DNA of 64,000 nt, from positions 20,894,001-20,958,000 of the forward strand of contig OZ210885.1 of assembly GCA_964658305.1 (NCBI GenBank), written 5' to 3'. The notes beneath the pieces are model-generated. The model was not told the origin of the DNA. It ran no database searches and saw nothing but the letters and a program-made list of their open reading frames with translations. This document shows positions 11,909 to 52,249 of this stretch, piece after piece. Each line of letters starts with the position of its first letter. Within the stretch, counting starts at the first letter, position 1. The position numbers were made by a program, and so were the translations under genes. This DNA is from Leptogorgia sarmentosa. Taxonomy: Eukaryota.

Positions 11909-13740
11909 TAATACATCTAGACTGCAGAGTTGGGCAATTTTGAATGAGATGTCAAGTTCAGGAAGACAGCATGTTCAAGTGTAGGGCACAAATTCTACAG
12001 TACATGCTTCCCAGTGTGAAAAATTTGAGAAAGTTGTTACTCAGAAGTTCAACATATTACAGTTTATAGTAATAACAAGAAATTATTAAAATGTAATACT
12101 TTGGGTTGCACTAACAGATCCCACAGAATTTTTCTCGGATGAGTTAAAGCACAACTCTGTAGTCTAGATGTACATATTTCATAGCATATATACTATGTTT
12201 GAGATGAAGTTCATTCAGATTCCACATGTCTTTTGCAGTTTGCTAGCTACACTAGTCTATAAAAAGAATAATGTCAATAAAATGTTTATCTAATTGGGAA
12301 TTATGGTTCTCACACTTGGGAAAGATTCATGTAATTTCCGGTCAAATTCTTTCTCAACTTTTTCACATCCTTTGTGATAAACACTGGAGAATTTGTTTGG
12401 AACTTCAACTTCTTTGGCATCTGATCCATCCACTGGGAATCACTTTACCAACTCCCACCCTTCAATACAGGAGACCACATTCTCTTTCAGGCAAAACCAC
12501 ATTCCTTTCAGCTGGTCTGGGAAGGGATCCTGTTCCTTATGCTTTGTAGTTGGATGGACATTAAATGCATCACGTGACATAAATGCCTTTCTGACGGTTT
12601 CTATCATTTGAATATTGGCCATCAAACGTTCACACATTTTAACACTTGTATGCCCTACAAATGTAAAATGTTTTTACTGCCAAAATAAAAAAATGTAGTG
12701 AACTGTCAAATCTGTTCAATTGCTTAAGCCCTTCCTTATTTGCTTTCACTTGAACTGTCATCAACTTGAACTGCACATTTGGTAGTTCACAACATTTTTC
12801 AATTTTAGCTAGTTAGTATGTAATATTTTTAGTTTATAATGTATTTTGTTAAAATTTAAACAGAAAACAGTATAGTCATTAATTATATTTAAATCATTAC
12901 CTGACACATATGTCTTAAGTGGCTTTACCAAGTGTTCCTCTACAAATTCATCCATTGCTAAATTATGGCCATCTTTCCCATACAAACTAACTGAACAATT
13001 TCTCTTAATCATTTCTCGGAAAGCTAATGGCCAGACTGTACTAAAATTAACGACATGAACAAGTGCTTCCGTCCAGTAGTTTCTAAATTGGAGCTGTGCA
13101 AATATTGGCAGAAGCAATTTCCAAATGGCTTCTCTAGTAGTTCCAAGACCATCTAGAAGTGGTGCAAAAAGGATTACTAGCTCTATGCTATATGCAAAAG
13201 ATTTATCTTTTACTGCACACGTTGACAACCAATCATTAAAACAATCCAAAAGCAGTTTGTTATGGTTGCCATTCAACATGGAGTGTTCATCCAGCATTTC
13301 CTTGGTGGGAAATTTTTCAGATTTCTGAAAATTCTGCACAGCAGCAAGCCCCATTGCGATGCCTCCATCTCTAACTGCTTCTTGTATCCTGGATAGGTTT
13401 TGGTGTTGGAACTTCCGTGACTTAAATGCTTCTTCTGTCACCTTTGCACGTTTCATTACTTTATTAATGAGGTAATGGAACACTCCTGTTTTCTGAGCTT
13501 TATATGCTGCCTCACAAAGGTAGCCTTTTGTTTGAAGATCACCTGGTATTTCAGCTACCCATTTAAATGCTGATTGGGAACGGTTTTTGGTAGATCTTGT
13601 CACCTTGCATGTACCTTGATCACCAACAACAGCGGTTGGAAGTTGCACATGCACACTTCTTGTGTATTTAACTGGAGTAGTGTCATCATCGCTGTCATCA
13701 TCTGCATTTTCCATTGTTGAATCAATATCATTATCTGACA

Positions 13741-14484
13741 CAGGGGCGGATCTAGGATTTTTTATACCTAAGTCGAACTGTCGAACGCAGAAGGCGTGAG
13801 ACACCCCTAGGGGGGTCCGAGGGGCATGCCCCCCCGGAAAATTTTGAAATTTAGAGTCTCTGAAATGCAATTTAAAGCATTTCCCGGGTAGGATTTAAAA
13901 TATTGTAAAGAACATCAAATACATGATTTTTCTCGCAAAACATCCCTAGCCGAAGATATGTATCCTCGGGATTAAATGAATTGGACAGTCATGCAATATA
14001 AACAGAGGGTCAAATTACAACGCACATGCAAATACAATAGGTTTTATAATAGGTTCATTCTAAAGTTAGTTCTCGATCATTAAACCAGATGAGATCCTTC
14101 ATTTAGAAACCATGAAACAACTGATTCAAATACATTCAATATAAATCGCTTTGTTGAATTACAGTGGTTGAATAAAATTTTATTTAATGGAATACAACAT
14201 GCTACAGTATAGATAGACTGGCGGCTGCTGCAACAATGTATTCATCGCAGATATCTGATATTTCACAAAATGTGGCAAATGTTATGAATAATAGTTCATA
14301 TTTTTGATATTTTCATAACCATAGATTATAGCAGCGCACACTCTCCCTTTGTCAGCCGACTGATTGCCAGCACGATCTTTGGGAGGCACGTATATATTCC
14401 AGCCGTTCTGTTGTTGAACATCAATATTAAGTAAAAGCTGCTCGCGCTGGATATTTTCGCTGCCGCACGAAAGATCCGCCCCTG
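13741..14484. mobile_element. hAT-type MITE inserted in an Academ transposase exon
   Basis: TIR CAGGGGCGGATCT / AGATCCGCCCCTG with perfect 8-bp TSD ATCTGACA (13733-13740, 14485-14492). Removing it restores the frame ...DVMSD-NDIDST... Confidence 0.9.
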
Positions 14485-14569
14485 ATCTGACATAACATCA
14501 TTCATGATGTCACTAATGTAGTCATTTTCTGCCGATTCATGTTCAAAAATCCTTGTGATTTCAGTCACT

Positions 14570-14820
14570 TTCATCGTGTCTGCCATTTCAATAGGAGAAG
14601 GCATGCTTGAATATAAGGCTCCTGATGCCAATGCAAAATTTTCGAAAAGGAGTTTGCACATATCCACATCTGCTTTCAACACTGCAATTGTCAAGGGTGT
14701 GGCCCCACAACCTTCTTGTACATTGATGTTCACACCAGCAGAAAGGAGTGTCTTTACAAGAGGCACATTTCCATTCTACACAGCATAATGCAAGATGTTC
14801 CGTCCAAGGTGATCTGTCAC
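14570..14820 (-). other. Ankyrin repeats (2 clear, possibly a third) within the Academ transposase
   Basis: DHLGRNILHYAV*NGNVPLVKTLLSAGVNINVQEGCGATPLTIAVLKADVDMCKLLFENFA matches the ankyrin consensus G-TPLH-A--G----V--LL--GA-VN. There is one TAG at 14778-14776. Confidence 0.85.
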
Positions 14821-17626
14821 AATTTCCCAGTTATCTCTACTATTGTGCAACTTGTTAATAAGCTTAACTAGATCACTATGTTCACTTGACTGCATGGCAT
14901 TAAGCATCTGACCATTTATACTGTCATACACTTTCTTCAATACCCCATCTTCTTGTTGAAAATGTCTTGTTGTGCTTTCAATTGTTTCAGGATGAACATC
15001 ATCAGAACGAGTAGTCTCACTAGGATCACAGACGTCAATTAACCCCTTTTCACTTGAACGGATCTGTTCCTCAGTATTAACCATGTTTATTCGATGCACA
15101 TGCAACATGAGCATAAATTCATGGTGTTTTCGAGCAGCGGAGAGGTCATAGGTATTTTCATCTTTGTTGAGCACAAAATTTCTTGTTGCATGTTCACATG
15201 GAATGTTAAATTCACTGCCAAAACTGTTCTAGTATTGCAGCAGTGCCGGTTAGTGTTGAATTGTCATCCAGAGAAAGAGGGAGAATTAAATAGTCACTTA
15301 CATGTGATGGAAACTCTCGATTGATAACAGGAACCTCAATTTGATAAACGTGGTCCTTTGCCTTAGGAGCTACAGCAGTAGAAACATATTCCTTGATCCA
15401 CCTGGTACACTCCATTTCACTCATTTGTTCTATTGGCTTAGAACTTGAAGGGATATTGTTTAGTCCTGTATCTAGAAGCTTCAGGAAATACCTCTCCTTC
15501 ATTTCATTCCATAACTGCATGTGTTTAGCATCTCCATCTACATTTAACACACAATAAGTAACAATATGTAAATGACAATTACCTAGTGAATATTAATTTT
15601 GGGACAACCATTCAAATGCTTACTGTACAAATCAAACCACTTAAACAGTTTAAAAGTCTGATAAAATGTGCAGCAACTGTACCAACCAATATGTCTTTCG
15701 CTTTGAGATGTTCAACTGGATTTTGTGGCTTCATCCAATGGGTTGAATCAAGGAATAGATGTTCCATCCCATCTAAACAAGGCAACAGGGCAGCTCTTGC
15801 AGTGAAATTCCACATTTTGGGACCCAACTTACGCACAAGCCTGTCATGTCTGGCTTTTCCTCTGTACATGTTGATATTATCCATAAGGAAGATAACAGGA
15901 GTTTCTGCTGTGAATTTGTCATCAATAAGTTGCTGAAAGCCATCCAACCGTTTGTCTAGGTACCCCATTCTTGGAAACAGAATATTGATCAATGTACTTA
16001 TTTAAATATATGTCAAACTCTGGCTCACTAAACTTACTTAAGAGATCATCCACTTTTTTAACATATCAATTCACATACAAAATGTAAAACACCTACAGGG
16101 TATCCCAATGCAGCGAAAGACCAAGAGAAGATAACATGTTGATGAATTGTTTTCCTGCACCATATGAGATACACAGCATTCCAAATAACAACACAAAGTC
16201 ATTCATGGCTCTCGAGTTTCTGATATTTAACAAGACTACCAAGGATTGGCTAGCACATAACAGTTTGTAATGTGCTGTTTTATGAATATTCCTCTCTTGC
16301 TTGTTCGACCCAACTAAACACCCAACTATTGATGTTATAAGAGGGCATGTCCTGGAAATCTCATCAAGAAATGACACAAACATGTCATTTGGTATGCTTG
16401 TATCAGTCCAAAACTTTCCAGTTCGGTATCCCTTGTTTGACAACTCTTCTAGCCTTTTCATCTCAACACTAATTTCTTGTTGCTGCTCAGCATTCAACTT
16501 CACACCAGTATGATGTATATTCTGGACTTGGATTTCATACAATTTTACCAATGCATCTGCATATTTGTTTCTATTACTTTGCTCCACTTTATATTGATCA
16601 GCTACTTGCAATGCAACATCACCAGGACTATCCTGTTCAAGATGGGTCATCAATTCACTCCACAACTCCTGAATTCTTGCATCACAATCAGTGATCTGTG
16701 TTTGCATCCTTTCAATTTCATCATCAACTTGTGATATACTCCGCCCTTGAACAACTGGCACATGAACAGATTTTCTTGTGATTTTCTTATACATATTACT
16801 TAGGTATTATAGTAAAGGAAACAATATAACAGAAAAGTATATTTATCAGTTGTAATTTGTGATGACTACCATTTAAACAAAATTTTAGAGTCAAACCAGG
16901 AGAAATTAATTTTGAAACTGAAACTGCAAGCCCTTTGGCAGGAATTTCCCATGTAACAGAGATTCAGGTGCAACACTCCAAGCAATTTCGGTTTGAGTCC
17001 TGTTGGAGTGCTTGCAGGACAATTACATTTTCACAGCTGTTCGTGTGCATAAAATTGTATCCCATAACCCATTAAAAATTACTACAGTATTTAGTTAAAA
17101 ACAAAAATATGAAACATTTCATAAAGAAAGGATACTAATTCCGACCAGATCTCATCACTCTCTTAATGCTGCATGAAGGAAATGCAGAAAGAACAACCCT
17201 TGTAGCTAGGCTCTTTTCAGTGTCTGTTAATTCCAGATAATGTAGAACAATAGATTGTTCCACTTCCTTCCCATCACATTGCTCAAAACCTTCCAACAGT
17301 TTTGCCTGAAGAATTTCTTGTCTCTGTTTGCGGTCCCGTCCAGACAAACCATGCCCTGTATTCAATACAAAATGAAAAATGTTTATTATCAAGTTAGAAA
17401 ACTGATAAACGAGCATTTGCTTATATCAACTTTCTGACTTACAAAAGGCCATCAGCCTATGGCTAAGAAATGTCAAACACCTGACATAGTGTATTGTAAT
17501 TTTAGTTACAATCATTAGGTGTTTTATCCAAGAACCGTATGACTCATCACTGATAAGAGCTTTCTGTCTTCATATGTAATATGTAAAATATGCAAATTTG
17601 CAATGGCTATCTGTAAAACAAGGAAC

Positions 17627-17958
17627 GGGGAATCGGGGAAGGGAACCGGGGAATCGGGGAAGGGAATCGGGGAATCTGTAAAAGCCGGAATCTGTAAAAC
17701 CCGGAATCTGTAAAAGCCGGAATCTGTAAAACCCGGAATCTGTAAAAGCCGGAATATGTAAAACCCGGAATCTGTAAAACCCGGAATATGTAAAACCCGG
17801 AATCTGTAAAACCCGGAATCTGTAAAACCCGGAATCTGTAAAACCCGGAATCTGTAAAAGCCGGAATATGTAAAACCCGGAATATGTAAAACCCGGAATA
17901 TGTAAAACCCGGAATCTGTAAAACCCGGAATCTGTAAAACCCGGAATCTGTAAAAGCC
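17627..17958 (+). repeat. Left MULE TIR arrays: G-rich 21-bp unit, then ~18 copies of 16-bp CCGGAAT(C/A)TGTAAAA(C/G)
   Basis: Direct reading; head-to-tail units with no spacers. Confidence 0.92.
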
Positions 17959-18379
17959 GTAGAAGTGGAATTGAAGCGTTTAAGTTAAAATGTTCTCTTT
18001 TTCTAGCATTAAACTACATCTCGATGTCTATAGCAATGTGAACATACAAAACGTGTAGATATATGAAAAACGACATTAGATTTTACGCTGAAATGTACTG
18101 TTTTAATAACATTACCAAAACACAAATAATCGAACAAGATGGCCAAAGTAACCAAAGTAAAAACGGTATCCAACTTAACGTGCAATATCTAACTTAAATA
18201 CACAGCTGTTGCAGATTATTCACCCCTCGTGCAAGCCAAAATATCTAAAAAATAACTCAAATTTTACAGCTCAACTTTGTGTGAATTAAGCAAAATAACG
18301 TTTGTAAAAGATGAAAAATGCATATGCAAATGCAATGTCTTATGCGTCATTACAATAAGAATATATGAAAACCTCGCAT

Positions 18380-21300
18380 CTATTCGCTGTGGTTCCAACC
18401 AAAATTTTGCGAAAGTCGTATCACATGCTCAGGGTGGAGCATCGCGGAAAAAGCTTCTGGGATGGCTAGAAAGCTGACGTTAAAATACGGATACCTTAAT
18501 TGAATGCACTCACGCCGCAAGTGAAAGTGGACATTTTGGGGATTGTTAGTTCGCTGAATTTGCCCGGTTATCCGATCTCTATATTCACGTATATCTCTAC
18601 AAAAAACAACAAGGTCATCAGGAGGTTCAGATGGTGGATTTGGAATAGCTCTTCCACAGCCATAGCACTTGGACACTCTAGTTCCGTGAACCCACTTCAA
18701 TTGAAACGACCTCGGTGGAACAGTTACTTGATGGGTGGCTGTAGATGAAGTGCCGACCGAATTTCCAGAAAGAACTGCACGATTTACACACGATGACACG
18801 TTAGTACCGCCGAATGATAGAGCACTGCTTCTGAACGCTTCTCTTGGCTGAGGTTGTAGTTGGAAATCACACATGGGGTGCGAAGCTGTTGATGGGAAAG
18901 ATGGATGCTGTTGCTGTAGACCCTGTGATGCAGATGGAGCTGTTGATGGGAAGGTCAAACGTTGTTGCTGTAGACCCTGCGATGAAGCTGTCGCTGTTGC
19001 TGGGAAAGATGGATGCTGTTGCTGTAGACCCTGCGATGAGGCTGTCGCTGTTGATGGGAAAGATGGATGTTGTCGCTGTAGACACTGCGATGAGGCTGTC
19101 GCTGTTGCTGGGAAAGATGGATGCTGTTGCTGTAGACCCTGCGATGAGGCTGTCGCTGTTGATGGGAAAGATGGATGTTGTCGCTGTAGACACTGCGATG
19201 AGGCTGTCGCTGTTGCTGGGAAAGATGGATGCTGTTGCTGTAGACCCTGCGATGCAGATGGAGCTGTTGATGGGAAGGCTGAACATTGTTGCTGTAGGTC
19301 AGATGTGGATCTCGCCGCCTGCTGATAACTCTCCAGATAATCGGGAGTATGTAATTCGACGTATCTTTCTACAGGAGTTGGTTTTGCATTCGTCCTTTTT
19401 CTGTTCGATGGTTTTTTTCCGGCGTTCTTGGGCCCACCTTGCTCCACCATATCCATCATCATTGTACGTTTTTTTCTTCCTTTAAACCACGCAATAAAAT
19501 CTGTTAATGTTCCTTTAACCTCGGCCACTGCAACGACGTGCTCACAAATTTTAGTGGAAAAGTTGACACATGTTCGATCACATGACAACGAGCCACCTTT
19601 TCCGGGTTTGACGCTGTGGATTTTGTTGCAGTTACCAGCAACAATAAACGATTCGTCCGTTGCTCCAGGTTTAGGAATGACAGATCCAGGTGTCTTCACC
19701 AACCGATCGGCCTTCTCAGATATATTTTCGAGAATGGAAGCAGGAATAGTTGTTATACCGCTTCCATTTGCTGTGCATGACAGCCCAGGCTTGTTTGCTC
19801 CTTTCTCACCACATTCAAGATCGTTGGTTGGATCTGTGATTTCATCAATGTGGTTGATATCCGCCTGCTTGAAATCATTTATTTTCTTAACAACTTGAGC
19901 ATGACTTAAACGACTCCTTTCTACGTCACTGACAGCGAATTTCGAAAATCCTTTTCTCAATCTATACGGTCCTCTATTGAACACGGCCCGCTCTTCGTTT
20001 CTTTGTTGCATCTCAATTATATCCTTGATTTTTTCGATGAACTCGTGGGGTTTGGTTGCATCGAAATGAAGACCATGTTTAATGATAAAATTTGCCGACT
20101 CGGGATCATTATTCTTATAATCGGAAGGTGGATCACCCAACCCTGCATCGATCCGAACTGGTTTCAGCATGGACTCTTTCATTTCCTCTGCCTATAAATA
20201 AGAGGAGCCAAAGCATTACAATATATCAACATGACTATTTGTTAATTTGATGCCATTTAAAAAAAAACATTCAGTCACGATGTAATTTAAGCAACAACTA
20301 CTATTATTCAATTTTTAGTATTATCAATTTTGATTGGTCAATTTATCTGCAAATATATGTGCAAATAATAGTCTGAGCATGCGCATTTGTTAAAAACATT
20401 GTTCATCTACTGAGATCCGCTTTCCTGAGCTTTCAGAAGACGATTTGTCGTCCCTTTTGAAGAAAAAGTGCTGATAAATTAACCAAAAAAAATTAGTATA
20501 CTATGAGGTGAATAATAAAACAAATATTGAACTCGGTTCTCGCAAAATATCGCGATTTGTTGGTGGCTAGCAGATCAATAATTTGCCCCTGCCTTCAGCA
20601 TCGATCAATATAATTGATCAGCTCGCGCCCGACAAATAACGATATTTCGTTCAACCTAGTCTAGTATGTGTTATCCTGCGAATCAATGTCGCAAATTTGT
20701 ACATAATATATCATGAAAAACTATATCACTGTTACCTTCTCGCGTCTAAACCATTCAAAGAAAGTTAAATTCTTTTCCTTCGACCCGCTCTCTCTCTCTT
20801 TCCATTCTTCTTCAAGATAAGCAAGCTTCTCGTCAAATTCATCGGCACAAGCACTATCCACCAGTCCTGTGTACATTACCTCTCCTCTCTGCTCACCGAA
20901 AATATCTGCGATAAATTGTTTACGGGCACTCGGTGACACTCCTATCAGTTAGCTTCCTATTAATGTTGTCCTTAACATGAAGAAAACAGCGTAAAAAGAT
21001 GGCGTAAGGAAAATTCCTCTTAAATCCATCACTTAGCGCCTTTTCTCCGTCAGTTCCACAAGCGAGAATCCCCTCCAACTCTGGATTTGCTGTTTTGAGA
21101 GCGTGGGCAAATTTGGAATAGGTTTTCCAATCTTTCTTTTGATGCATTAGTAGAGGGCCTATAAAAACAGGTGGCTTTCCAGTGGTGGTCTGCTCCAGCT
21201 TAAGATTCCTATATGTAGTAACTGTTAGGCTGATATTCTTATCAAAGATGTTAAATGTTGGGTCGATACCAAATATACAAAAATTCATTGGATTAGTGCA

Positions 21301-22499
21301 AAATTTCTTAAGTTCATCTAACTGCACATTGTTTGCTAAAACGACAAATAGGCTTGGATGGATCGAGCATTCTCGTATGAATACGTTATGTTTTGATTCG
21401 TCTTCCTCTCTCTTGGCGCGTTCTAAAAGCGTCCAAACGTCATCCAATCGCATATTTGCCTTTGTTCCTTGTTCCGCCTCTCCACTAACGCCACTTGCAG
21501 TATCAAGCGACTGCCTTGCCGATCGCCTCGCGTTATACATATCTACAGGACCTCTTGGCAACTCTCCTAACGAGCGTGCCATCGTAACGTCTCCAGATGA
21601 AGAATAAATTTCGTCCAAAGCAGCAGTTGCAGTTTTTTTACCATCTAATACGGAACGCTTCATTTTTTCCCTTGTACTCGGTAGGATACGTCTATACGGT
21701 AGCTTAGACTTGGAATTTCCGTGCGGTTTAGCGTTTAAAACATCGTGCTCAGGCCCACTGAACAAATATTGGACGAGAACCAAAGGAAGCTGGTTACCGG
21801 AAGGATCTATGTTTTAGAAAAAATGTTGCAGAAACAACCGTTAGTTTCAGTACAGTGAAAATAAATACAGTGTATATAAATATGTGGATAATTCCATTCC
21901 CAAATTATGTAAACACAGTCCCATAATTGCCACAAGCTGATCCACATTTTACTAAATTCGCGCAGTATTCATTTTCGCGCAGCCTCCAATTCGTGCATCT
22001 TGTTCAGAGTTTAGAACTACGAGACTCACTACACATACACTGGACGCACATATACATACCGTATAATCTTGAAACAATTTTACGAACATCCGGCGAGGAA
22101 ACGTTCGTGTAATATACTCGCTTCAATTCATGTGCCAAATAGGTTCTGCGTGAACAACTGCGATCTTTACTTTCGATTGTTATTCTCTTACAACCTTGTT
22201 GATCCGTTTCCACCAGACAACGACATTTAGGAGAACCGTTATGTTTCCATGCGCCCATGTCGTCGCACTTCATGTCATCTTTATGCGCGAAACATGTCGA
22301 ATCCAAAAGAAATGACACGTTATGTGACACATTTATAGGCTGCGATATGCACATTGCTTCCTTTTCATATGATCCAAGGAGCACAGCCGCAATCTCATAA
22401 CTTGTATAAGCTTTTATTCGTTTTTCAAATATTGGAGTCTTTGTATCACCCTTGTACGGCTCGCCAAGAGGTGTAAACGATGCAATGTCGTCGTCAACA
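18380..22499 (-). CDS. MULE transposase moiety: DDE core, SWIM finger, Gln-rich repeats, C-terminal CxxC...HxxxxC finger (one frameshift)
   Basis: Exons 22499-22060, 21806-20736, 20191-18380. Motifs DMKCDDMGAW, KPHGNS, FGIDPTFN (D), CGTDGEKAL (D), RCFLH (CxxH), NNDPESAN (E); SWIM-like CDRTC...ICEH; SKCYGC...HFHLRRECI. Single frameshift near 20940. Confidence 0.88.
18880..19300 (-). repeat. 54-bp coding tandem repeat (18 aa, SQGLQQQHPSFPATATAS), ~8 copies
   Basis: GCTGTAGAC recurs every 54 nt (19021, 19075, 19129); in frame in the transposase's last exon. Confidence 0.9.
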
Positions 22500-22870
22500 C
22501 TGAAAGATATTAGGTTCCATTATTGACAATAATAAATTCAAGAAGGCATTGATGACAAAAGTTCGTCAGGAAAACTGCCATAACAATCAATTCAAAATTG
22601 TAATTTGCACGTGAGATGCTATCAGGCGAATTCCTAAAACCTGATAAGTCTGGCCAACGTTCTCTTTCATTTGGCTGTAGCTTCTTATTGTTTAGCATTT
22701 TGGAGTTCAACTACCTTACTCGTACTTAATTTCGGGTGACTTTAATTTCGCGATTGAAAAAGAATCACGAAATTAAAGTCGCGCGAAATATGGCTTCTTA
22801 GAGATTAGTACATGAGATTGTAGGATCTATGCAACTTTCTCAAAGAAAATATTAATAGGCATATTTTTAC

Positions 22871-24067
22871 CTTGATGATGATTCGCCACTACTAGAACTG
22901 GACGTCTCATTAGAGCCTTGATAAAAAATGGCTTGACTTGTGGAGGGAATGTCTCGATTATTGGATACAAGAATTGGCCTCTTTTTTCGCGAATACGACC
23001 TGCCTCTGTCAGGACTACTTGGATTAGAATCATTTCGGCTGGGATTTGTAGATGGAATGTCTCGATTATCACTCCCAGAGAGAGACTGTTCTTCGCTAGT
23101 CGCATCAGAATCATTTCGACGTCGACTAATGGATAGACGGATTGAACTCTTTTTCCTGGAATATGATCTATCTTTATCAACATTAGGATCATTTATTTGG
23201 CTGGGAGTTGTGGATGGAATGTCTCGATTATAACTACCAGAAAGTGGCTGTTCTTCGCTAGTCGCATCAGAATCATTTCGACGTCGACTAATGGATAGAC
23301 GGATTGAACTCTTTTTCCTGGAATATGATCTATCTTTATCAACATTAGGATCATTTATTTGGCTGGGAGTTGTGGATGGAATGTCTCGATTATAACTACC
23401 AGAAAGTGGCTGTTCTTCGCTAGTCGCATCAGAATCATTTCGACGTCGACTAATGGATAGACGGATTGAACTCTTTTTCCTGGAATATGATCTATCTTTA
23501 TCAACATTAGGATCATTTATTTGGCTGGGAGTTGTGGATGGAATGTCTCGATTATAACTACCAGAAAGTGGCTGTTCTTCGCTAGTCGCATCAGAATCAT
23601 TTCGACGTCGACTAATGGATAGACGGATTGAACTCTTTTTCCTGGAATATGATCTATCTTTATCAACATTAGGATCATTTATTTGGCTGGGAGTTGTGGA
23701 TGGAATGTCTCGATTATAACTACCAAAAAGTGGCTGTTCTTCGCTAGTCGCATCAGAATCATTTCGACGTCGATTTATGGATTGAACGATTGGACTCTTT
23801 CTTCTGGAATGCGATCCATCTTTGTCGAGATTTGACTCATTTCGTAATGGAATATCTTCATTGCCTTTACTAGACGGTGGTTGTTCTTCGTAAGTCCGAC
23901 TAATGTGCAAGATTGGATTTTTACTAGCGGAGTACGACATGCCTTCGTCTTTGATTGGTGGAATATCTCGATTATATATACTGGATAAGGATGGTTCTTC
24001 GCCTTGGGGCTGTCGTTGCTGTACATTCAGACTTTGACTTGTGGGCGTCGTTGCCGACTCTGAAAAT
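22871..24067 (-). CDS. Ser/Arg-rich low-complexity exon linking the kinase and MULE moieties
   Basis: Open frame of ~399 codons bounded by acceptor cttag| at 24068 and donor AAG|gtaaaa at 22870, both phase 2. Confidence 0.7.
23050..23775 (-). repeat. 162-bp coding tandem repeat (54 aa), ~4.5 near-identical copies
   Basis: CGCATCAGAATCATTTCGACGTCGA recurs every 162 nt (e.g. 23101, 23263). Protein unit RRRNDSDATSEEQPLSGSYNRDIPSTTPSQINDPNVDKDRSYSRKKSSIRLSIS. Confidence 0.93.
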
Positions 24068-24664
24068 CTAAGACACACATGTCAATGATCAATAAATATG
24101 CTTTACTGACCATCATAGGAGTAGAATACACAGGGGCTTTGGGGCTCGAGCACCACCCCCCCCCCCCCTTTAGAAATCTTACACAGGGGATGCATACATG
24201 CTGCTTGTGGATCAAATTTGCAAATCATGAGTTATTTTAAGCCATTAATTTAGTAAGTGAAATATTACCTTGCATCATTCTCATCATGTGTAACTTCAAC
24301 ACAATGCCAACTTTCTTTCAGAGGAGTCACCTGTTTAGTTAATGGAATAAACTCATGAGTTACAATGTTTAATTAATAGATGGGAATATTCAGTAACACT
24401 GTATCTATCAGTGAATGCAAAATGTTTCTATCATTTTCTGTTTCATTTGACCAATCCAAAACATATGAAAGACCATCATTCCAGCTGAATTTCTGGACTA
24501 CAGCAGTGCTCACATGAATTACTTTACATGAAATACTACCCAAATGAATAAATTAGGTAGCCTTCATCATACCACAGGGAATTTTTACAAAACAATCTTA
24601 CTAGAATCTCATTTCATATGTCATTGTGTTAACGCCTTGTAGGATTGCTTGAAAGCCTGAAATC

Positions 24665-25057
24665 AAATCTCACAACTTGTTAACAAGACATGTTCACAAC
24701 AAGCTTGCAGCAAGCCTGTCAACAAGTTGCAACAATGCTGTTATTTTGACAAGTTGCAACAAGCTTGTCACTCACTCACAACTTGTTAACAAGTTGTCAG
24801 AACAAGCTTGTAGCAAGTCTGCTGCAGATTTGTCACAAGTTGTTACGAACCTGCAACTGACTTGCTACAGGCTTGTTGACTCTACAGTCTTGTTACAAGC
24901 TTGTTCTAGCTAGTAACTTGTTATCATCTTGCAATTCAACAACTTGTTAACATGTTGTGAGTGACAAGCGTCAAAGTTGTCAAAACAAGTACAACTTGTC
25001 GACACTCTTGCTACAAGCTTGTTGCGAACACATCTTGTTGTCAAGTTGTGAGATTTT
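24665..25057. mobile_element. Palindromic MITE-like element built of ACAAG/CTTGT/CAACTTG motifs, in an intron of the MULE gene
   Basis: AAATCTCACAACTTG.TAACAAGA at the left mirrors TCTTGTTG.CAAGTTGTGAGATTT at the right. TSD not resolved. Confidence 0.7.
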
Positions 25058-25062
25058 GGGTA

Positions 25063-26166
25063 TTACATGTGCTTTACCTTTGGAAAATTCTGATCTTGAG
25101 AGTGTTGTTCAGATGAGTCCAGACAGAGAGATATTTCTTTTGCACATGCTCGTCCCCCAGGTTGGAATGCAGTACATGCATAATATGCTTCACATATTTT
25201 TTTCCAGGATCTTTCAAGTCTTACATCCTCATGTTTTTTGGAGAATTGTGGCCTTTTCCCTGTTGACACTACCAATCTGACAACTTCTTTTGCCTCTGAA
25301 ATACTTGATAATTCCTTATATTTTCCAAGCTCAATTGAGTATGGGCACTCCAAATCTGGATTAACAAGAAGGAACATTACCATACCCAATGACCAGATAT
25401 CTGCACGTTTTAGGTCTTCGATTGAAAACAATGCCGAACGATCATGTGAGGTGATAATTTCAGGAGCATTATAAATAAGTGTGCCTCGCTCAATATTTGA
25501 TGTATGTGTATGCTGAAGCGATGCTGTTTGATTAACTGTAGATCTACTTTCGCCAAAATCAGCAAGTTTACAAACAATAGCATTCTTATTCCATGCTTCT
25601 TCAATCAATTTTGTATCTTCCAAATGACAATAGTGCTTATTTGAAACTAAAATGTTTCCTGGCTTGATATCTCTATGGACAATTTGGTTTTCGTGTAAAA
25701 ACGCTAATGCAGTGCATATATCTTGAGCAATCTTTAACTGCAAGGATGAAAGTTGCGCAACAAATCCTTCTCCTGCGATAAAATCCAGGTAATCGCTCAA
25801 GCACGTCACACGATCACCGCTAATTCCCAATGGCTTAAAATCGAAATATAAATATTCCAACATAACCGCTAGTGGTTGCACACAAAACCCTTTAAACTTC
25901 ACAATATTTTCACAGTTTAAGTTATGGTGTATGCGGACTTCTTTCACAAAAAGATCTCTTTCCCTTCGGTTGGTCTGCCGCTTTGTTTTTTTTACGACAA
26001 CAGCTTCATTGTTGTATTCACCATAATACACATCACCATATGTTCCTTCTCCTATTCGACGTTTATCTGTAACATCATGCCACTTGAAAGAATTCAAATT
26101 CGGAATGATCTCTTCTGCCTCCAACTCTTTCCTTTCTCTTTGTAGGATGGGTAGTTTCCTTGCCAT
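25063..26166 (-). CDS. Ser/Thr (TKL-like) protein kinase domain inside the MULE, probable first exon of a fusion gene
   Basis: All catalytic motifs present: IGEGTYGDVY, VVVKK, FVKE (alphaC), HRDIKPGN, DFG, GTLIYNAPE, DIWSLG. A strong donor AAG|GTAAAG lies at 25078/25077, just before the stop. Confidence 0.92.
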   Translation of the reverse strand: MARKLPILQRERKELEAEEIIPNLNSFKWHDVTDKRRIGEGTYGDVYYGEYNNEAVVVKKTKRQTNRRERDLFVKEVRIHHNLNCENIVKFKGFCVQPLAVMLEYLYFDFKPLGISGDRVTCLSDYLDFIAGEGFVAQLSSLQLKIAQDICTALAFLHENQIVHRDIKPGNILVSNKHYCHLEDTKLIEEAWNKNAIVCKLADFGESRSTVNQTASLQHTHTSNIERGTLIYNAPEIITSHDRSALFSIEDLKRADIWSLGMVMFLLVNPDLECPYSIELGKYKELSSISEAKEVVRLVVSTGKRPQFSKKHEDVRLERSWKKICEAYYACTAFQPGGRACAKEISLCLDSSEQHSQDQNFPKVKHM

Positions 26167-26326
26167 TTTTATACAATTTTTTTTCTTCCAAACAACAAGT
26201 ATAAAACCATGATTGAAAAGGATTTGAAACACAGTCGCCGACGTGAATATAGAGCTAGCAGAGAACGCGTGTAATGCAAATCACGATCACGCTGTAATGA
26301 ACTGTTTCCGGTTTTTACAGATTCCT

Positions 26327-26592
26327 CAGATTCCGGGTTTTACATATTCCGGGTTTTACAGATTCCGGGTTTTACATATTCCGGGTTTTACAGATTCCGG
26401 GTTTTACATATTCCGGGTTTTACAGATTCCAGGTTTTACATATTCCGGCTTTTACAGATTCCGGGTTTTACATATTCCGGGTTTTACAGATTCCGGGTTT
26501 TACATATTCCGGCTTTTACAGATTCCCCGATTCCCTTCCCCGATTCCCCGGTTCCCTTCCCCGATTCCCCGGTTCCCTTCCCCGATTCCCCG
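26327..26592 (-). repeat. Right MULE TIR arrays (~12 copies of the 16-bp unit plus the 21-bp unit), inverted relative to the left
   Basis: Reverse complement of the 17627-17958 arrays, with a different copy number. Confidence 0.92.
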
Positions 26593-28070
26593 TTCCTTGT
26601 TTTACAGATAGCCAATTTGCAATACCTTCTCCTGAATGCACAATTCCACTTTCAGTGTCAGCAGCACTATGATAAGCATCCTCAAGGCTACATCGTCAAG
26701 TTGCACTGATACCACCTGGAAACAAATATCCCCCACATTAATCAACTGAGGTGTACATTATATATATATATATTTAATAGATATATGTACATTATAATAT
26801 ATATAATGTTTTATTGAAATTTCAGTAACATACTCAAGATCTGTTTTAATGGTCTAATTGGTGGCCAATTGCTTGTCTTCACAAATATAAAAGTACATGT
26901 GTTGTCTCCAGTGCATATGAAATGTGTAAAATAATCATGCATGTGTACTGTAACTGAATGAAGAGAACATTGTGCCCAATATAGTATACACTAGCCAATA
27001 AGAATTATACCAGATGGCTGATGGGATGTTAAAGCTTCCAAAGTACTGACGACATATTGACTGTTATTAATTTTGTTTTTAAACCATATGAACAAGTAGT
27101 AGGGTCTTAAAAGTACTGGTTATTCTGATTAGAGCTTAACATATTTATATTTTTATTATTTGTATTGTATCATTTCTCTATCAAAGGCATTAAAACTAGC
27201 ATTCCATACAATAATCATACATTTACATTAGCCAGGATTTATGGAAAGGCAAGCTACAGTATACAATACACTTACACTATCGTTATAAAATATACACTTT
27301 TTATTTTACCTGAAACACCAAAACGTTTCCTTTCTGGCTGACCAGAAGATTTAGACTTCGGAGTAAGGTCATGCTTTTGACTGAGTCGTTGTCTGTCTCG
27401 AATATCAACATCACTATCGGTGGCAGTAGTATCACTCTTGCCTCGGTTGTCTTCATCGGTTTCACTTGCTATAACACTAACAGCTTGCTGAAAATTGCAG
27501 GCAAGCCTTACTGATCGCCAGAGACATTGGGCAGACGTTTCTATGAAAGAAATAGAAACGATTACATCAAACTTCACTGGAAACTACAATTGGAAGGCAA
27601 AACCAGTGTGATTTTCAATATTTCATACCTTGTAAGGTTAATCCCTCTACAGCCTCCTTCACCTCTTCAAGTGATGACATCTATAATCACATGTTGAGGG
27701 CATTAACGGCCTCAAATGTCGCGTGGTTCGAATAATAAATCCTCAACGATAAGCGTTTACATGAATGCGTATATATTTCTGTTGAAAACACTTGAAAGAA
27801 AGCTCCAAATCTCAGAAAACCAACTATTTGCAAGAAACAGACGAATTTTGCAAGAAACAGAACAAGATCTGCCAGGCGCTTCTCCTATTTCCCGCAGCAA
27901 CCCCATAAACCCTTGCGCACCAGCCTGCTACTTCATGTAAGCCTGCAATATCTAGCGCCTGGGGACGAGGCAGTGAAAACATTACGACTAACACCCCCAC
28001 TTGTTTTCATGAACTAAAATTATTTACATTTTTTTTTTTTCTTTTAAACTACTTGAAACACGAACGAACA

Positions 28071-31000
28071 CTAATTACACGGATTAAAACCAAACAGAAT
28101 AGGTCTAAATCTATCCAACTTTACCTTAGTAACTGGTTTAGTGAAGATGTCGGCTACCATACATTCAGTTGGGCAATATACAATGTCTATTTTGCCACTT
28201 ACGAGTACCTCTCGCAAGAAATGATATTTAATATCTATATGTTTACATCTTTGTCTGCTTACTGGATTTTTGCTTAAAGATATCGCCCCTTGATTGTCCT
28301 CATATATCATTGTGCATTTATATGTTTTATTATCCATACTATTTAGCAACTGCATCAAATACAAACTTTCCTGAGTGGTAGCTGCTAGACTAACATACTC
28401 TGCCTCGCAGGTGGAAAGAGCAATCGTAGGTTGTCTCTTCGACTTCCACAATATGGGAGGAGCATTCTCAGTTAAGCTAAAACAGTACCCTGTGGTACTG
28501 TGTCTATCATCCAACGAAGATGCCCAATCTGCATCACTATAAGCAGTAAGATTTAGTTCGTTGTTACCCTTTTGATAACACAACTCGTACTCAATCGTGC
28601 CCTTTAAATACCGTAACACGTGCTTTGCGGTGACCAAATCTCCCATCTTTGGACACGACAATCTCTGAGACAGTTGACTACCCAACTAATATCGGGTCTG
28701 GTACAGGTCATCAAGTAAATTAGACTACCTACAATCTATATCTCTTTGGGTCGACTTGTTCACTCTCATTTGTGCATTCTAACCTCTGCTCACATGGCGT
28801 CATTCTTGGCTTACATTCAGACATGTTGAATCGATCTAGTATTTTCTGAATATATCTCTTCTGACTCATCTTAATAACCCCATTCTCTCGCTTGAAGTCA
28901 ATACCAAGGAAGTAAGAAATTTCCCCTAAGTCCTTCATCCTGAAATTACCTTTCATGTTTTCTTTAAACTGGATTATCATATTTGTGTTATTAGAGGCTA
29001 TAATGAGATCATCAACCCAATCGACTGGATTTCTAACAAATCCATCACCTATCAGATATTCATCCAACACCCTATTCCAGTTCCTACCAGACTGCTTTAG
29101 CCCATAAAGAGATTTTCTCAACTTGTAAACCAATTTAACGCCATCCTCTGATATCTTTTGAAAGCCCTCAGGTTGTTCCATGAATATTTCATGGTCAATT
29201 GGGGCATGAAGGAAAGCGCCTTTGACGTCCATCTGATGGACAGTTAGGTCATACTGAGCAGCTAACTGCATAAGAATTCTTATTGAAGTGATATTGGCAG
29301 TTGGGGAAAACGTTTCTTCATAGTCTATACCGTGTACTTGACTGTATCCCTTTGCAACATACCTAGCTTTAAGCGTTTCGGAACCATTTGCATCCTCCTT
29401 TATGGTATAGACCCACTTCCCCCCCCACTAAATACTTACCCTCTGGTAAAGTGGTTAATTCGAATGTGTCATTCTCTCTAAGTGCTTCTAATTCATCTTT
29501 CATTGCCTGCTCCCAGCCTAAAGCATTGGTGGAGTTTATGGCTTCATCAAAAGTTTGTGGCACACCACAAACTTTATAACAAAAATCAACATTTGTATAA
29601 GCTGAGTTTTCAGCTCCCAAGTATTGTGGAGCTTTTCTCTCCCTCTGAGGTTAAACCTTAGGCTCATTTTCAGGCTCTTTTGTATTTTCAGGCTCTGCTT
29701 GCAACCCTTCATCAATATCTAAGCTTCTCTCAACAGATTCTTCAGGTTCAGGGGATGACCCTTCCTCCTGTTTCTCAAGGTCATTTGAGTAACTTTCATT
29801 CTCAACCTTTCTACCAATACCTATGTCCTCAATTTCAGTTTGTGTGCATTGTTCTACATTAGTGTTCTTAATAAATTTTATTAGTCTGTGTTTCATGATT
29901 TTTCCACACTGTGGGTGGTAGACAAGGTAAGCTGGGCTGTTCTTGTCATACCCAATGAATATCCCTTTTTCACACCTAGGGTCCAGTTTCTTGTGATCAT
30001 AGTTATAAACGTAGCACTCTGAACCAAATACCCACATTTTTGAAAGGTCTGGTTTTCTACCTGTCATGCTAAAATAAGGTGTACTCTTAGTTCTATTGTT
30101 ATAGCACCTATTTCTAATATGGGCAGCAGTCTGGACAGCATACGGCCACAACACCTTAGGCACACCCTTCTCCAACAACAAACATCTAGCCATTTCAAAT
30201 AATGTGCGCCACTGCCTCTCTGCCGTACCGTTTTGATGAGGGGAGCTGGGATAGGACGTTTCATGCCTAATACCCTTTTCCCTAAGAAGAGTTTGGAAAT
30301 CGGTACTCATAAATTCTGTGCCATTATCTGACCTTATGCACTTAACCTGGCCATAAGGGGCACAGTCGGCAAGAAACATCTCAGTAGCTACTAACGTGTG
30401 ACTCTTTTTCCTAAGGAAATATACAAAAACAGCTCCAGAGAAATCATCTGTGAAGGCAATACAATATTTAAAACCATTTTTAGATACTGGGCTAACAGGG
30501 CCTGCTAAGTCTGTATGTACCTTTTCTAGGGGTTGTGTCGCTCGACTGTCAGGGTTTCTATTTCTACAATTTGCAAACTTCCCTTCTGCACATGTGCCAC
30601 ATTCCAGCTTAGATCTATCTACCTTTCCTACTACCTTCATCCCACTGACTATACTTTCTAATTTCATTATGTCATCAAAATTGCAGTGCCCCAATATTTC
30701 ATGCCACTTATAAATACTGCATGCTAGATTTACCTTATCACCATTACTTTTACTGCTACCATCACTATATTGTTCAACAGTGTTCAAGTAATACAAGCGT
30801 TCATGTCCCTCAATAATGAATGTAGTGCCATCCTTGTAAACAAGTTCATTTCGATCTTGTGAGAACTTTACTTCAGCTCCATTTGAAGTAGCTGCTTTCA
30901 CAAAAAATATATCTTGTGGGTAGGATGGTATAAACAGTGCATCTTTCAGAACAGCTTTCACATGTCTTCCATTTACATCTTTCAGGACCACCTCAGCATC

Positions 31001-32059
31001 TCCACGTTTCATAGCCACATTATTATGACGTGTCCCATCTGCAAGTTCCATGTAATGATTTGCCGGCTTAAAGTTACCATCAATTCGTTTCAAGGTATCT
31101 GTGGTAATAACATGTGATGTAGCCCCAGTGTCAACAAGCATCCCATTTGCATTGTACTGTGAATGCTTGGCAGGGCTAACTTGCGCATTGATAAAAACAT
31201 ACGAGTGTTCATCCTCAGTTGTGTCCTCTGACTGGTTGCTGGATGTTGCCTGTTTCACTTTTGTGTCTGCTTGATGTCTTTGTTGATGTCTTCGACAGGC
31301 ACTGTCATTATGTGTTGTTGACTTGTGGAACGGACACCACTTGGTTGTCTCACCCTTTGTTTTGTCAGGACAGTCCCTCATGATATGACCTTTGCGACCA
31401 CAAGCATAACATGTGATGGAATTTGGTGGGGAAGTTAATGGGGAGTCAGTTTTCATTACTTGATCTACCTTTGGTTTACAATTGAATTTTTCCGTTTCTT
31501 CAAAGCTTTTCAGTTGGGATTTGAACACAGCAAATGAAATCTCACTTGTACTTTGTGTAACATGGACAACAAAGGGTTTGTAGGCTTCAGGTAGGCCTTT
31601 TAATATCATGGCAATAACAAGACCGTCACTCAATGTCTCTTTAGCGTTTTTCAGGGCAGTAATCGATCTTCCCGCTCTTATTAGATAGTCTGTTACTGTC
31701 TTGTTTGTTCCTTTCTCGAGCGATGTAAGTTCAGTATACAGAGCTATAATCCTAGGTTTACCTTGGCTTGCGTAGTAGTCTCGTAAAATCTTCAAGGCTT
31801 TTCTTCCATCACCAGCGGCATCTTGCATCACTAATGACAGGCTAGTATCATCCAGAAGTTGTATTAATTCAGCATAACATTCTTCGTTCTTCTCTTCATC
31901 GGCTTCTTCCTCCGACGGCATAATTGTTTTCTTCAATTTCAGGGTTTGCATATAACCAAGGAGTCTAGCTTCCCAAAGCTCAAATTTAGTTTCATCTCCG
32001 TCAAATATAAGTCTTTGTAATTTAGCGTTGCTCCTGGGCCCATAACCTGTTGAACTCAT
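28071..32059 (-). pseudogene. Copia gag-pol (gag, PR, IN, RT, RNase H) with frameshifts and a deletion
   Basis: CYACGRKGHIMRDC zinc knuckle; LVDTGATSH protease; WHEILGH; integrase HTDLAGP/SDNGTEF/NGTAER; RT QMDVKGAFL and WVDDLII; RNase H YSDADWA/CEAEY/EDNQG/ADIFTK. IN-before-RT order is that of Copia. Confidence 0.95.
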
Positions 32060-32559
32060 TTTGTTATAATCGTCCTTTTATTAAAGATTCACAATATCAA
32101 CTATAACAAGTTACAGCTTACACACTATATCTTACACGAGGTCGAAAATCAAGAAGTATACATCCTATAATGCAACACCGTCCGATTACGTAATATGAAA
32201 ACATTACAACTAACAAATTTGCAACCTTTCTTACTCAATGCCTTAACGCTATGAAGTCACTGACCTACCTCGTCATCCTGGATCATCCACAGAACTTGCA
32301 CCACCTGGTAAAGAAACTTCCATTTTTCTTGCAAGAACGCTGGAGACATGAAGTCATCAGGATACATGAAACTAAGAAGAACCCCCTATTCACGAACTTT
32401 GTGAATTTCATCAAAGCCGAAGCAAAAGTTGCCACGGATCCTGTTTTCTCTCGACGCATCCTTGAGAGAATTGATCAAGATGACAGAAGTAAATACAAGA
32501 AAGGAAATGTACAAAAATACATTAGTGGAGTCACAATCAGCAGAGTAGTAACTGGTTTG

Positions 32560-35500
32560 GTAGTGTCGGACTTAAATGGCCAAAACCCTATTGAACTTAC
32601 AAAAACCTATTGAACTTACAAAAACCTATTGAACTTACAAAAACCTTTGTTAGAGACGAAATCTCTGGACGTGAATCGCAAGTACCTCATCCAAAGTCAT
32701 TTCGTGAATGGACACATTTACAAAGAGTAGCAGATCTAATACCCAGGCCCATGGAAGACACTAAAGTTGGACTGCTAGTAGGCACAAATTGCACACAAGC
32801 CGTTGAACCGAAAGATTTTGTAGCTAGTGAAAATGGTGGCCCTTTCACAGTCCTAACCTTCCTAACCTTCGCTGGATGGACAGTCGTAGGTCCCTGCTGC
32901 TCATGTCTAAAAATGTGCCTGAATTTGATTGTAATCGAATTATTGTTCACGAAGTAGGAGAAGTAAAACCATCTGAGCATCGCTTTGCGATCGGAAATTC
33001 CGTTAAAGAGATTATCATTCCTGAGAATTTAATCAAGATGTACGAGTTAGAATTCAACGAAAAGTATAACGACGATCATTCAAGTTCCCACGAAGATAGA
33101 CGATTTTCAGAGAAGATCGAAAACAGAATCTCATACATTCATGGTCACTACCAAATGCCTCTACCCTTTCGAGATGTTGATACCAGGATGCCTTCCAATA
33201 GAGAACAAGCAATTCAAAGAGCTTACTGGTTAAAGAAAGGTTTCTAAAGAATAAAGATTTCCACAAAGATTACACGAAGTTCATGAACGATACTCTTGAA
33301 AAGAACGATGCTCATAAAATACCAGTTCAGTATCCCTCGCCGAAAGAAGGGAAAGTTTGGTACATACCACATCATGGCATATACCACGCAAAGAAAGCTA
33401 AAAAGATTCGAGTTGTATTCAATTGCAGCGCTAAATTTGGTGGTATATCTTTGAACGACAAACTGCTACAAGGACCTGATCTTGCGAACTCCTTGATTGG
33501 TGTCCTGACAAGATTCCGCAAAGAACAAGCTGCATTTATGGGAGATATTGAAGGCATGTTTCATCAAGTAAGGGTGAATGAAGATCATCGCCATTATCTT
33601 CGCTTTCTTTGGTGGCCGAGCGGAGATCTGACAAAAGATTTAGAGGAATATCAGATGAACGTGCACTTATTCAGAGCCATCTCATCCCCAAGCTGCGCGA
33701 ACTACGCTTTGAGAAGAACAGCGGACGACTTTGAACACGAAGAAGGAAATCGAGCTGCAAACGTTCTGCGGAAGAACTTTTACGTTGACGACTGTTTAAA
33801 GTCTGAGCCAACAGATTGCAACGGAATGTATCAACGTCATTCGCATTTGTGCAAAAGGTGGTTTTCATCTCACTAAATTCACAAGCAATAGTATATCCGT
33901 GCTCGAGAAAATCCCCGAAGAAGAATGGTCGAATGAACTAAAAAGTATGGAGCTTAATTGTGACCATTTACCTATCGAACATGCTCTCGGCATCCGGTGG
34001 GCAACAGAGTCCGACGAATTGGGATTTAAGATCATAATTAACGAGAACCCACTGACTTGCCACGGTATTCTATCAACTATTAGTTCCATCTACGACCCTC
34101 TTGGTATAGCAGCACCAATTCTACTACCTGGGAAGAAGATATTGCAAGATCTTTGTAGAGAAAAACTAGATTGGGATGAAGATTAGTCCCGTTACAAAAC
34201 GTTTGTTGCTAACCACGTCCAGACGATAAGAGAGAGAACCACAGTCGATCAGTGGAGATATGTTGATAGCAAAGACAACCCTGCCGATGAGCCATCCTGT
34301 GGCATAAGCATCGACTGATTCTTGTCACAACAACGCCGGATTAAAGGACCAAAATTCCTCTGGAATCCAGAAAGCGATTGGCCTGAAGATCTAGCTGTAG
34401 CCAACACCTTCGCTGATGATATAGTCAATCAAACGATCATAGAAGAAAGTGATATTTTACAGCGTGTAGAATACTTCTCACAGTGGCAATATTTGAAGAA
34501 AGTTGTCTCATGGATTCTTCGTTGGAAAAAGATAAAGAAAAATTCAACTGACCTGTCAGATAAAGCCGTAAAGGAAACAATGGTAAACCTTCCACAACCA
34601 ATAACAGTCGACGAAATGACTCAAGCAGAAACGGTAATTCTGAAGTTACTACAAAACAAAGCCTTCCCAGCAGAAATCAATGCATTGAAAGCAGTCACAA
34701 CTGAGGATCATAAAGATGAACGTTCAAAGATAAAACAGATCAAGATAGAAATTAAGAAAAACAGCTCGCTTTTTCGACTGGACCCATTCATCGATGGAAA
34801 GGGTTTACTGCGGGTTGGCGGCCGGCTTAGAGAATCCAAAGAGCTAACTGAAGACCTTAAACATCCAATAATACTCCCCAAGAAAAGTCACATCACCACA
34901 CTTATTCGTCACTGCCATGAGAAAACTGGCCACGCAGGAAGAGGGATGCCCTGGAATGAGATAAAAAACAAGTATTGGATAATTAATGCAAATTCCTCTG
35001 TACGATATTATATATCCAAGTGTGTAACATGTCGAAGACAACATGGTTCTGTAGGAGTGCAGTTAATGGCTGATTTACCACCCGATAGAGTAACATCTGC
35101 CCCGCCCTTCACCTACATCTGTGGATTATTTCGGCCCATATTACGTCAAAGAAGGCCGGAAACAATTGAAATGGTACAGTGTACTTTTCACATGCTTAGC
35201 AAGCAGAGCTATCCACATAGAAACAGCTACAACCTTGGAGACTGATTCGTTCATTTGTGCTCTAAGAAGATTCGTGGCTAGAAGGGGACCGGTTCGCCAA
35301 ATGAGATCTGACTGTGGCACAAACTTCCTGGGAGCCGAAAAAGAGTTGAAGCAAGCTCTGGAAGAGATGGATCATAAACGACTTCAAGAAATCACATGGG
35401 TGGCGTCTGAGAGAGACAAATATGTACAGTAAGATCAATTTTGTCATCTATGATACGAGAAAATGGGCATATTTTAAATGACGAATCCTTGCGAACACTG

Positions 35501-35937
35501 CTTACCAAAGTCGAATGTATCATAAATAGTCGCCCACTAACATTTCCATCTGGTGATGCTAAAGATCCCGAACCTCTGACACCAAACCACATCCTGACAA
35601 TGAAATCCAAAGTCGTACTCCCCCCTCCTGGAAACTTTCAAAGCCAGGACTCCTACCTGAAGAAAAGATAGAGACGAGTCCAGTGAATCTGTTTTGGTCT
35701 AGATGGAAAAAGGAATATATCCAAACACTGCAGACTCGTGCGAAATGGATAAAACCTAAGCGAAATTTTCATGTTGGCGACGTTATTTTGATGAAAGACG
35801 AAAGAACTACGAGGAATCACTGGCCATTGGCACTCATCACCGATGTTTTAACGGATAAAAAGGGACTGGTTCGTTTCGTTACAGTAAAAACTGGATCGAC
35901 AACCCTAGAACGCCCAATAGATAAGTTGATAAAGTAA
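32560..35937 (+). pseudogene. BEL/Pao pol (RT, partial RNase H, integrase), frameshifted and internally deleted
   Basis: WYIPHHGIY..KIRVVFN, DIEGMFHQV, FYVDDCL, IYDPLG, HEKTGH...CVTC, DYFGP, SDCGTNF, INSRPL, W.RWKKEY. A 19-bp triplication lies at ~32582-32646. Confidence 0.92.
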
Positions 35938-52100: not shown

Positions 52101-52249
52101 ACCTAATAAAATATTTAAAAGACTTGCTTTAACGGGGAAATTCAATGAATGATTTAACGCTGTATCAGTAAAATTACCTAAAATTAAGCTTGAATTTGCT
52201 GGAGCCAAGATTTATAATGATACAAGATATCAGTATATCATGATACCTC

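Follow-up and report, generated by a model that had tools for sequence, protein, structure and literature searches.

A Mutator-type transposon of the octocoral Leptogorgia sarmentosa whose transposase is probably fused to a complete protein kinase

We analyzed a 64,000-nucleotide stretch of the Leptogorgia sarmentosa genome (positions 20,894,001 to 20,958,000 of contig OZ210885.1, assembly GCA_964658305.1; the window hereafter) and found that it contains a DNA transposon of the Mutator superfamily (Mutator-like element, MULE) spanning 9,009 bp (17605-26613). Its six exons very probably encode one transposase of about 1,890 amino acids (aa) with a protein kinase at the N terminus. Since homologous kinases and transposases share one predicted protein in several relatives, a one-off capture of the kinase is refuted at the level of the compared sequences, and the view of a preliminary description of this DNA, that the element defines a MULE lineage of its own in which the kinase is integral, is supported. 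The features of the element, including its terminal inverted repeats (TIRs), the target site duplication (TSD) and an insertion resembling a miniature inverted-repeat transposable element (MITE), are as follows.

17595..17604: left copy of the TSD, 10 bp, an exact repeat; the empty site in run X1 has the 10 shared bases
17605..17960: TIR at the 3′ end of the gene; its short unique tip is followed by 21-bp units and by a 16-bp unit in about 18 copies
18380..20191, minus strand: exon 6; catalytic Glu motif NNDPESAN, SWIM-like C-x3-C-x8-C-x-H, Q-rich repeats, putative PARP-type zinc finger
About 18383-18712, minus strand: C-terminal putative PARP-type zinc finger, within exon 6
18885-19297, minus strand: Q-rich 54-bp repeats, within exon 6
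20736..21806, minus strand: exon 5; last part of the N-terminal domain, then the MULE/IS256-type DDE core (IDPTFN, GTDGE, CxxH), frameshift near 20940
22060..22499, minus strand: exon 4; conserved transposase N-terminal domain
22871..24067, minus strand: exon 3; low-complexity linker rich in Ser/Arg, in which a 162-bp unit recurs 4.9 times and Ser+Thr make up 27%
24269..24330, minus strand: exon 2; 62-nt mini-exon whose skipping leads to a stop, 3′ junction drawn from the X8 contig
24665..25056: palindromic, MITE-like repeat of high copy number within intron 1; starts 7 bases past the stop at 25063 and has very high summed contig depth
25078..26166, minus strand: exon 1; complete protein kinase domain of the Ser/Thr type, in which a family-specific insert separates the catalytic loop from DFG
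26300..26613: TIR on the 5′ side of the gene; the 16-bp unit is present in about 12.5 copies
26614..26623: right copy of the TSD, 10 bp, an exact direct repeat of the left copy

As the preliminary description had stated, all coding pieces lie on the minus strand, all five introns are of the GT-AG type, and the joined exons amount to 5,671 nt with one frameshift. The phases it assigned are right before the frameshift; past it, they needed correction and are right only once the shift is allowed for. Its order of domains, from the kinase and the Ser/Arg linker to the DDE core, the SWIM-like motif, the Q-rich repeats, and the C-terminal zinc finger, also held; a conserved N-terminal domain lies between linker and core, and the final zinc finger is corrected to a putative PARP type by its predicted fold. 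Read from the kinase ATG, the joined exons stay open over 1,224 codons, as far as the DDE core, and meet a stop at 20920, the frame of the window copy being broken near 20940. For comparison with other copies, contigs of 4 of the 16 listed sequencing runs (X1, X3, X6, and X8, from three studies) were used. By net piece length, X6 and X8 have two bases more than the window copy between 20873 and 21037, and X1 and X3 have three more over longer pieces; in X6, the third extra base sits elsewhere, between 21324 and 22062. Adding two bases yields 5,673 nt, i.e., 1,890 codons plus a stop. The copies in the four runs are probably intact, and the break is probably a lesion or an assembly error of the window copy. 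Among the 40 of 255 differences displayed, 17 were coding (7 synonymous and 10 nonsynonymous), too few to judge selection.

Exon 1 matched the Pfam Pkinase profile with 114.8 bits (E value of 6e-33). The Gly loop, Lys, HRD, DFG, and APE motifs noted earlier are all present, as are the αC Glu, the full HRDxKxxN motif, and the subdomain IX Asp, and the domain is predicted to be an active Ser/Thr kinase. Profile matches to JAK, ABL, and IRAK4 all lay near 86 to 90 bits, and no group stood out for a TKL placement; look-alikes in the atlas were PBK/TOPK-like and PDIK1L-like kinases. In a kinase tree with 22 other kinases (those of 37 outgroup candidates that passed the length filter), the family stood apart on a long branch. 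The family kinases are 33 to 43% identical to that of the window yet retain the catalytic residues; they fell into one clade (10 of 32 rows; SH-aLRT of 100), and in 8 of these 10 the spacing from the catalytic loop to DFG is 30 to 32 residues. In the transposase tree, which did not include P0168 and from which 2 of 52 rows were removed for their short length, the window element was placed in a clade of 11 of the 50 rows (support 100/100) that holds four other kinase-bearing rows; the transposases of P0002 and P0169 lie outside this clade on a long branch. Because the kinase tree places the family kinases in one clade, the kinase is an old module of this transposon group and not a fresh capture.

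Kinase and transposase were found in one predicted protein in Sanderia (a scyphozoan), in Dendronephthya (an octocoral), and in one distant lineage. A query with the transposase returned 48 longer proteins, four of which carry Pkinase: P0121, P0124, and P0128 from Sanderia malayensis and P0168 from Dendronephthya gigantea. All four are among the nine closest transposase matches; of the other five, three begin inside a domain that follows the kinase in relatives, and two start later. A query with the kinase, limited to proteins of 644 to 2,000 aa and thus leaving short stand-alone family kinases outside its scope, returned 372 longer proteins, of which three stood out clearly (E values of 1e-68 to 7e-37; the next was 2e-15). 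Kinase and transposase were fused in five of the seven family clusters outside the window; this count is biased, since four clusters came from the transposase query and short kinases were not searched. The relative P0002 (1,324 aa, from Logan), one of the three best kinase matches, holds the whole D-D-E core, with a transposase core 27% identical to that of the window (E value of 1e-12), and together with its two Logan cluster mates comes from six contigs, the longest of about 5.2 kb. Through residue 1291, P0002 differs from the gene model P0169 at 4 positions; beyond that point the two part, as though P0002 entered an intron, and the cluster mates follow this course as well. As intron read-through would give this pattern, P0002 appears to encode the kinase through the catalytic Glu in one unspliced frame. 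P0121, P0124, and P0173 are near-identical Sanderia copies with a kinase in each, as expected for a multiplying element. The layout of P0168 is that of the window (kinase, linker, and N-terminal domain), and exon junctions 4-5 and 5-6 are collinear with those of the relatives. A full-length query with P0124 matched only itself, P0121, and P0172. No transposase relative was found on the viral or prokaryote contigs scanned, and a metagenome scan with a generic kinase pattern (1/64 parts) gave 80 unrelated kinases of 23 to 34% identity.

The outermost 40 bases of both TIRs are exact inverted copies, 293 of 308 positions are identical over the TIR alignment, and the tandem arrays of the 16-bp unit within the TIRs comprise 18.1 and 12.5 copies. 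For the TSD, a given 10-base match has a chance probability of about 1.5e-6. The earlier claim that TIRs and a 10-bp TSD bound a single MULE stands. A contig of X1, a run that may be related to the window's own sample, joins position 17594 to 26614 and lacks the element and one TSD copy. Because this contig skips exactly these parts, the insertion is polymorphic and recent. The long TIRs, the 10-bp TSD, and a MULE/IS256-type DDE core with CxxH together agree with the superfamily, for which TSDs of 8 to 11 bp are tabulated (PMC6446971). In X1, X3, and X6, the summed contig depth over 17400-18027 and 26192-26800 far exceeds that of the element interior. This depth, which is not treated as copy number and is inflated over the TIRs by the 16-bp arrays, suggests that many short nonautonomous relatives exist.

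We then considered the splicing of this copy. Between 25064 and 25199, no consensus donor other than 25078 occurs, and the kinase frame has a stop of its own at 25063, 15 bases past this donor. No AATAAA occurs between the kinase stop and exon 2, and exon 2 is required to bring kinase and linker into one frame, its skipping giving a stop. Contig pieces of X8 end exactly at 24067 and 22871 and, at 22501, 22063, and 20193, within 2 to 3 bases of 22499, 22060, and 20191. Because its pieces end at predicted exon borders, X8 probably represents spliced RNA, although the kind of run is not on record. Junction 24269>24067 is backed by depth arithmetic (1.48 predicted and 1.48 observed), and 22871>22499 by the X8 ends; of the junctions put forward in the preliminary description, 25078>24330 was not seen, and the one X8 contig that reaches exon 2 appears to run into intron 1 there. 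The kinase end (25131) and the introns (at 24241, 21922, and 20199) are uncovered in X8, which shows nothing by itself. The window copy is probably spliced from 25078 to 24330, and a kinase-less isoform is possible, with the first in-frame ATG of exon 3 at 23940. High-copy inverted-repeat insertions lie in introns 5, 3, and 1 (20302-20647, 22729-22789, and 24665-25056).

The Ser/Arg linker encoded by exon 3 had no match in any relative compared; some low-complexity linker is kept in all of them, and the distance from the kinase to the next domain ranges from about 130 to 440 residues across the family. The exon 4 domain is 38 to 46% identical to seven of nine relatives compared, is folded and beta-rich in a structure model of the homolog P0122, and is likely to bind DNA; a CG-1/WRKY-like identity is conceivable. 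The D-D-CxxH-E core is spread over exons 5 and 6. It matched the Pfam MULE profile PF10551 weakly (E value of 0.014, below the cut-off) and an IS256 model with an E value of 0.003. In structure, the P0122 model (predicted local distance difference test [pLDDT] score of 80.7) came closest to the IS256-family transposase ISCth4 (E value of 1.3e-5; Z score of 12.1 and root mean square deviation [rmsd] of 5.4 over 232 aligned residues). Despite the weak Pfam score, the predicted MULE identity is clear from homologs and modeled structure. The last 110 residues are predicted to fold confidently (pLDDT of 91.3), and PARP-1 fingers occupied the top 16 structural rows for this C-terminal finger (best Z of 6.9, rmsd of 2.8, 84 aligned), the next unrelated fold having a Z of 3.2. 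Its ligands, Cys-x2-Cys ... His ... Cys, are invariant in 20 of 20 sequences, with a last spacing of His-x4-Cys; in PARP fingers, this spacing is His-x2-Cys. A PARP-1-like finger is a good lead from the model, short of proof.

In nine proteins (P0001, P0002, P0003, P0121, P0123, P0124, P0126, P0127, and P0133), the kinase is followed by an unnamed domain of some 220 aa that is absent from the window element and from P0168. The domain resembles a cysteine protease, and its Cys motif plus D/E-T-H/N, of the Asp-x-His type, would make it VTD-deubiquitinase-like by motif; Pfam and PDB sequence searches gave no link to VTDs.

Our best explanation is that of a recent cnidarian MULE whose kinase-fronted transposase has host proteins as targets, an account that, taken whole, has an even chance of being right. 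The transposase would bind the arrayed TIRs and cut, the PARP-like finger would hold it at the broken ends, and the tethered kinase (plus a protease in many relatives) would modify nearby proteins, such that host chromatin, repair, or silencing proteins would be phosphorylated at the ends or cut sites to the benefit of the transposon. We infer kinase activity, binding of DNA breaks by the finger, and the host target. Given the architecture, the host-target mechanism is somewhat better than an even call; it is favored over self-regulation because conservation is seen in a second enzyme-like domain and in the break-sensor-like finger but not in the linker. Several observations weigh against this explanation or parts of it. 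The one X8 contig that reaches exon 2 appears to pass 24330 and extend 175 bases into intron 1, to about 24505, and the depth of the intron 1 bin (2.60 predicted and 2.6 observed) exceeds the 0.30 that full splicing would give; this evidence of retention comes from one low-depth contig. The 39 more distant transposase matches (29 to 42% identity) are without a kinase, but most of them are probably database open reading frame calls from the core onward, in which upstream exons could not show. Two of the seven family kinase clusters, P0001 (Actinostola) and P0003 (Acropora), show no transposase, P0168 is without DFG as modeled, and P0128 is degraded. Most fused relatives are gene predictions whose surrounding DNA, and hence whose TIRs, were not seen. 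The PARP-finger match lies below a Z of 8, with no match reaching an E value of 0.001, and no result here identifies a substrate.

The same evidence can be arranged differently. If the fusion is real, the kinase could mainly phosphorylate its own transposase or linker as a switch for DNA binding, assembly, or turnover. Kinase and substrate would then sit on the same chain, exon 3 has 17 R-x-x-S/T sites and a Ser+Thr share of 27%, and all relatives keep a low-complexity linker; however, the Ser/Arg repeats are private to the window element, and with the variable distance from the kinase to the next domain no conserved target is visible. We consider such a switch unlikely, and phosphorylation of the linker, which the preliminary description had entertained, fails as a family-wide purpose since the linker is unmatched in any relative. 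It is more improbable still that the locus makes mostly separate products, namely a kinase that stops at 25063 and, from an RNA that retains intron 1 or begins within it and is possibly driven by the MITE, a transposase that starts at 23940 and lacks the kinase. The X8 contig in which intron 2 appears spliced and intron 1 entered, the kinase stop 15 bases past the donor, the in-frame ATG, and the kinases of TBE and IS3EU transposons, which are separate genes, would all suit this arrangement. However, partly spliced RNA would explain this single low-depth contig from a run of unrecorded kind just as readily, the kinase stop is not followed by an AATAAA, and P0002 is fused without any splice being needed.

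A chance capture of a host kinase in the manner of a Pack-MULE, with the fused relatives as gene-prediction artifacts, is largely refuted and has very little probability left. MULEs with kinase fragments have been reported from maize and MULEs adjoining kinase genes from a fungus, and gene predictors can join neighboring frames. Nevertheless, the same kinase clade occupies the same position before transposases as little as 27% identical, the kinases keep their catalytic residues at 33 to 43% identity to that of the window, and one relative is apparently a single unspliced frame. Pack-MULEs are nonautonomous elements with recently captured host gene fragments; this classification was rejected for the window element, which has a full transposase and a complete kinase of its own deep clade, common to distant elements. 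A broader reading than our best explanation, namely, an ancient and widespread cnidarian MULE lineage that joins a kinase, often a herpes-tegument-like deubiquitinase, the DDE core, and a PARP-like break sensor in one chain and rewires host repair or silencing at its own cuts, is rather doubtful.

Compared with known systems, the element shares long TIRs, a 10-bp TSD, the D-D-CxxH-E core, and a SWIM-like motif with Mutator/MuDR and IS256 (ISCth4) and differs from them by its N-terminal kinase and C-terminal PARP-like finger. A survey of 50 MULE groups lists SWIM, FLYWCH, PHD, OTU, SET, FAR1, and PMD as extra domains, and the word kinase occurs 0 times in its accessible text and three supplements (PMC6446971). 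The cnidarian MULEs of the Ghost subgroup (MuDR-1_NV; 5,366 bp with a 177-bp TIR) and Rehavkus (TIRs of 26 to 400 bp and a C-terminal minisatellite) also have long TIRs (PMC6446971); no kinase is listed in the descriptions available for them, by which they were compared with the window element. The ciliate TBE transposons of the Tc1/mariner type keep a predicted zinc-finger/kinase protein under purifying selection, but this 57-kDa kinase is a separate gene, and the transposase belongs to another superfamily; according to a section heading, the TBE accessory proteins did not change DNA binding in Escherichia coli (10.1101/2025.03.17.643836). The fungal DNA transposon IS3EU also carries a kinase gene, but that gene is separate, lies on the opposite strand, and encodes an atypical alpha-kinase instead of a classical in-frame kinase (PMC12730594). 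The Cys plus Asp-x-His signature in the post-kinase domain of the relatives is that of VTD deubiquitinases, known from Helitrons and cnidarian fusion genes, and cnidarian VTDs fused to transposon domains have been noted; in the accessible text of that paper, kinase, MULE, and Mutator occur 0 times (PMC9741609), and the window element is without such a domain. In the literature searched, outside Repbase, Dfam, and most subscription journals, no in-frame kinase-MULE fusion was found, and the accessible parts of PMC3558436, 10.1101/2024.02.09.579586, PMC8647823, and PMC10799480 do not describe a kinase-transposase fusion. Kinases as separate transposon genes are already known; a cnidarian MULE lineage with an integral kinase appears to be new, although it may already be annotated in a database.

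Transposases are usually substrates of host kinases. Why transposons carry proteases, SET domains, and kinases, and what these target, is a long-standing question; a lineage that keeps a classical kinase fused across scyphozoans and anthozoans makes the purpose of such protein-modifying enzymes directly testable. A kinase-dead change in this compact, recently mobile, and near-intact element would be a clean experiment. In addition, some coral and jellyfish proteins named as host kinases, such as P0168 ("myosin light chain kinase") and P0169 ("mitogen-activated protein..."), are likely transposon products.

The MULE was inserted in a degraded minus-strand gene with ankyrin repeats (14326-14775) and DUF6589 (12809-13894). 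Within 10581-17600 and 26614-27560, this gene faces a plus-strand RecQ helicase (10581-11908), and the host frame reads through the empty site. The arrangement of degraded gene and helicase points to an AcademH-type transposon; a link of AcademH with helicase domains is found in the literature. Elsewhere in the window, a Copia-type long terminal repeat retrotransposon with gag, integrase, and reverse transcriptase pieces occupies 28071-32077 on the minus strand. Two unrelated Mutator-type remnants with PF10551 MULE and PF20700 Mutator-like transposase matches lie at 51383-52102 (minus) and 52680-54208 (plus), and other transposon remains, a DDE_Tnp_4 (Harbinger-like) nuclease and hAT-like pieces, lie at 6813-7280, 38733-40289, and 50337-50870. 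By eye, 32194-35937 and 57957-63160 read like Bel/Pao retrotransposons. The inverted repeat pair 36557-36707/49188-49338 may bound a DNA transposon of about 12.8 kb, and the pair 42906-43123/43512-43729 may bound a MITE of about 820 bp.

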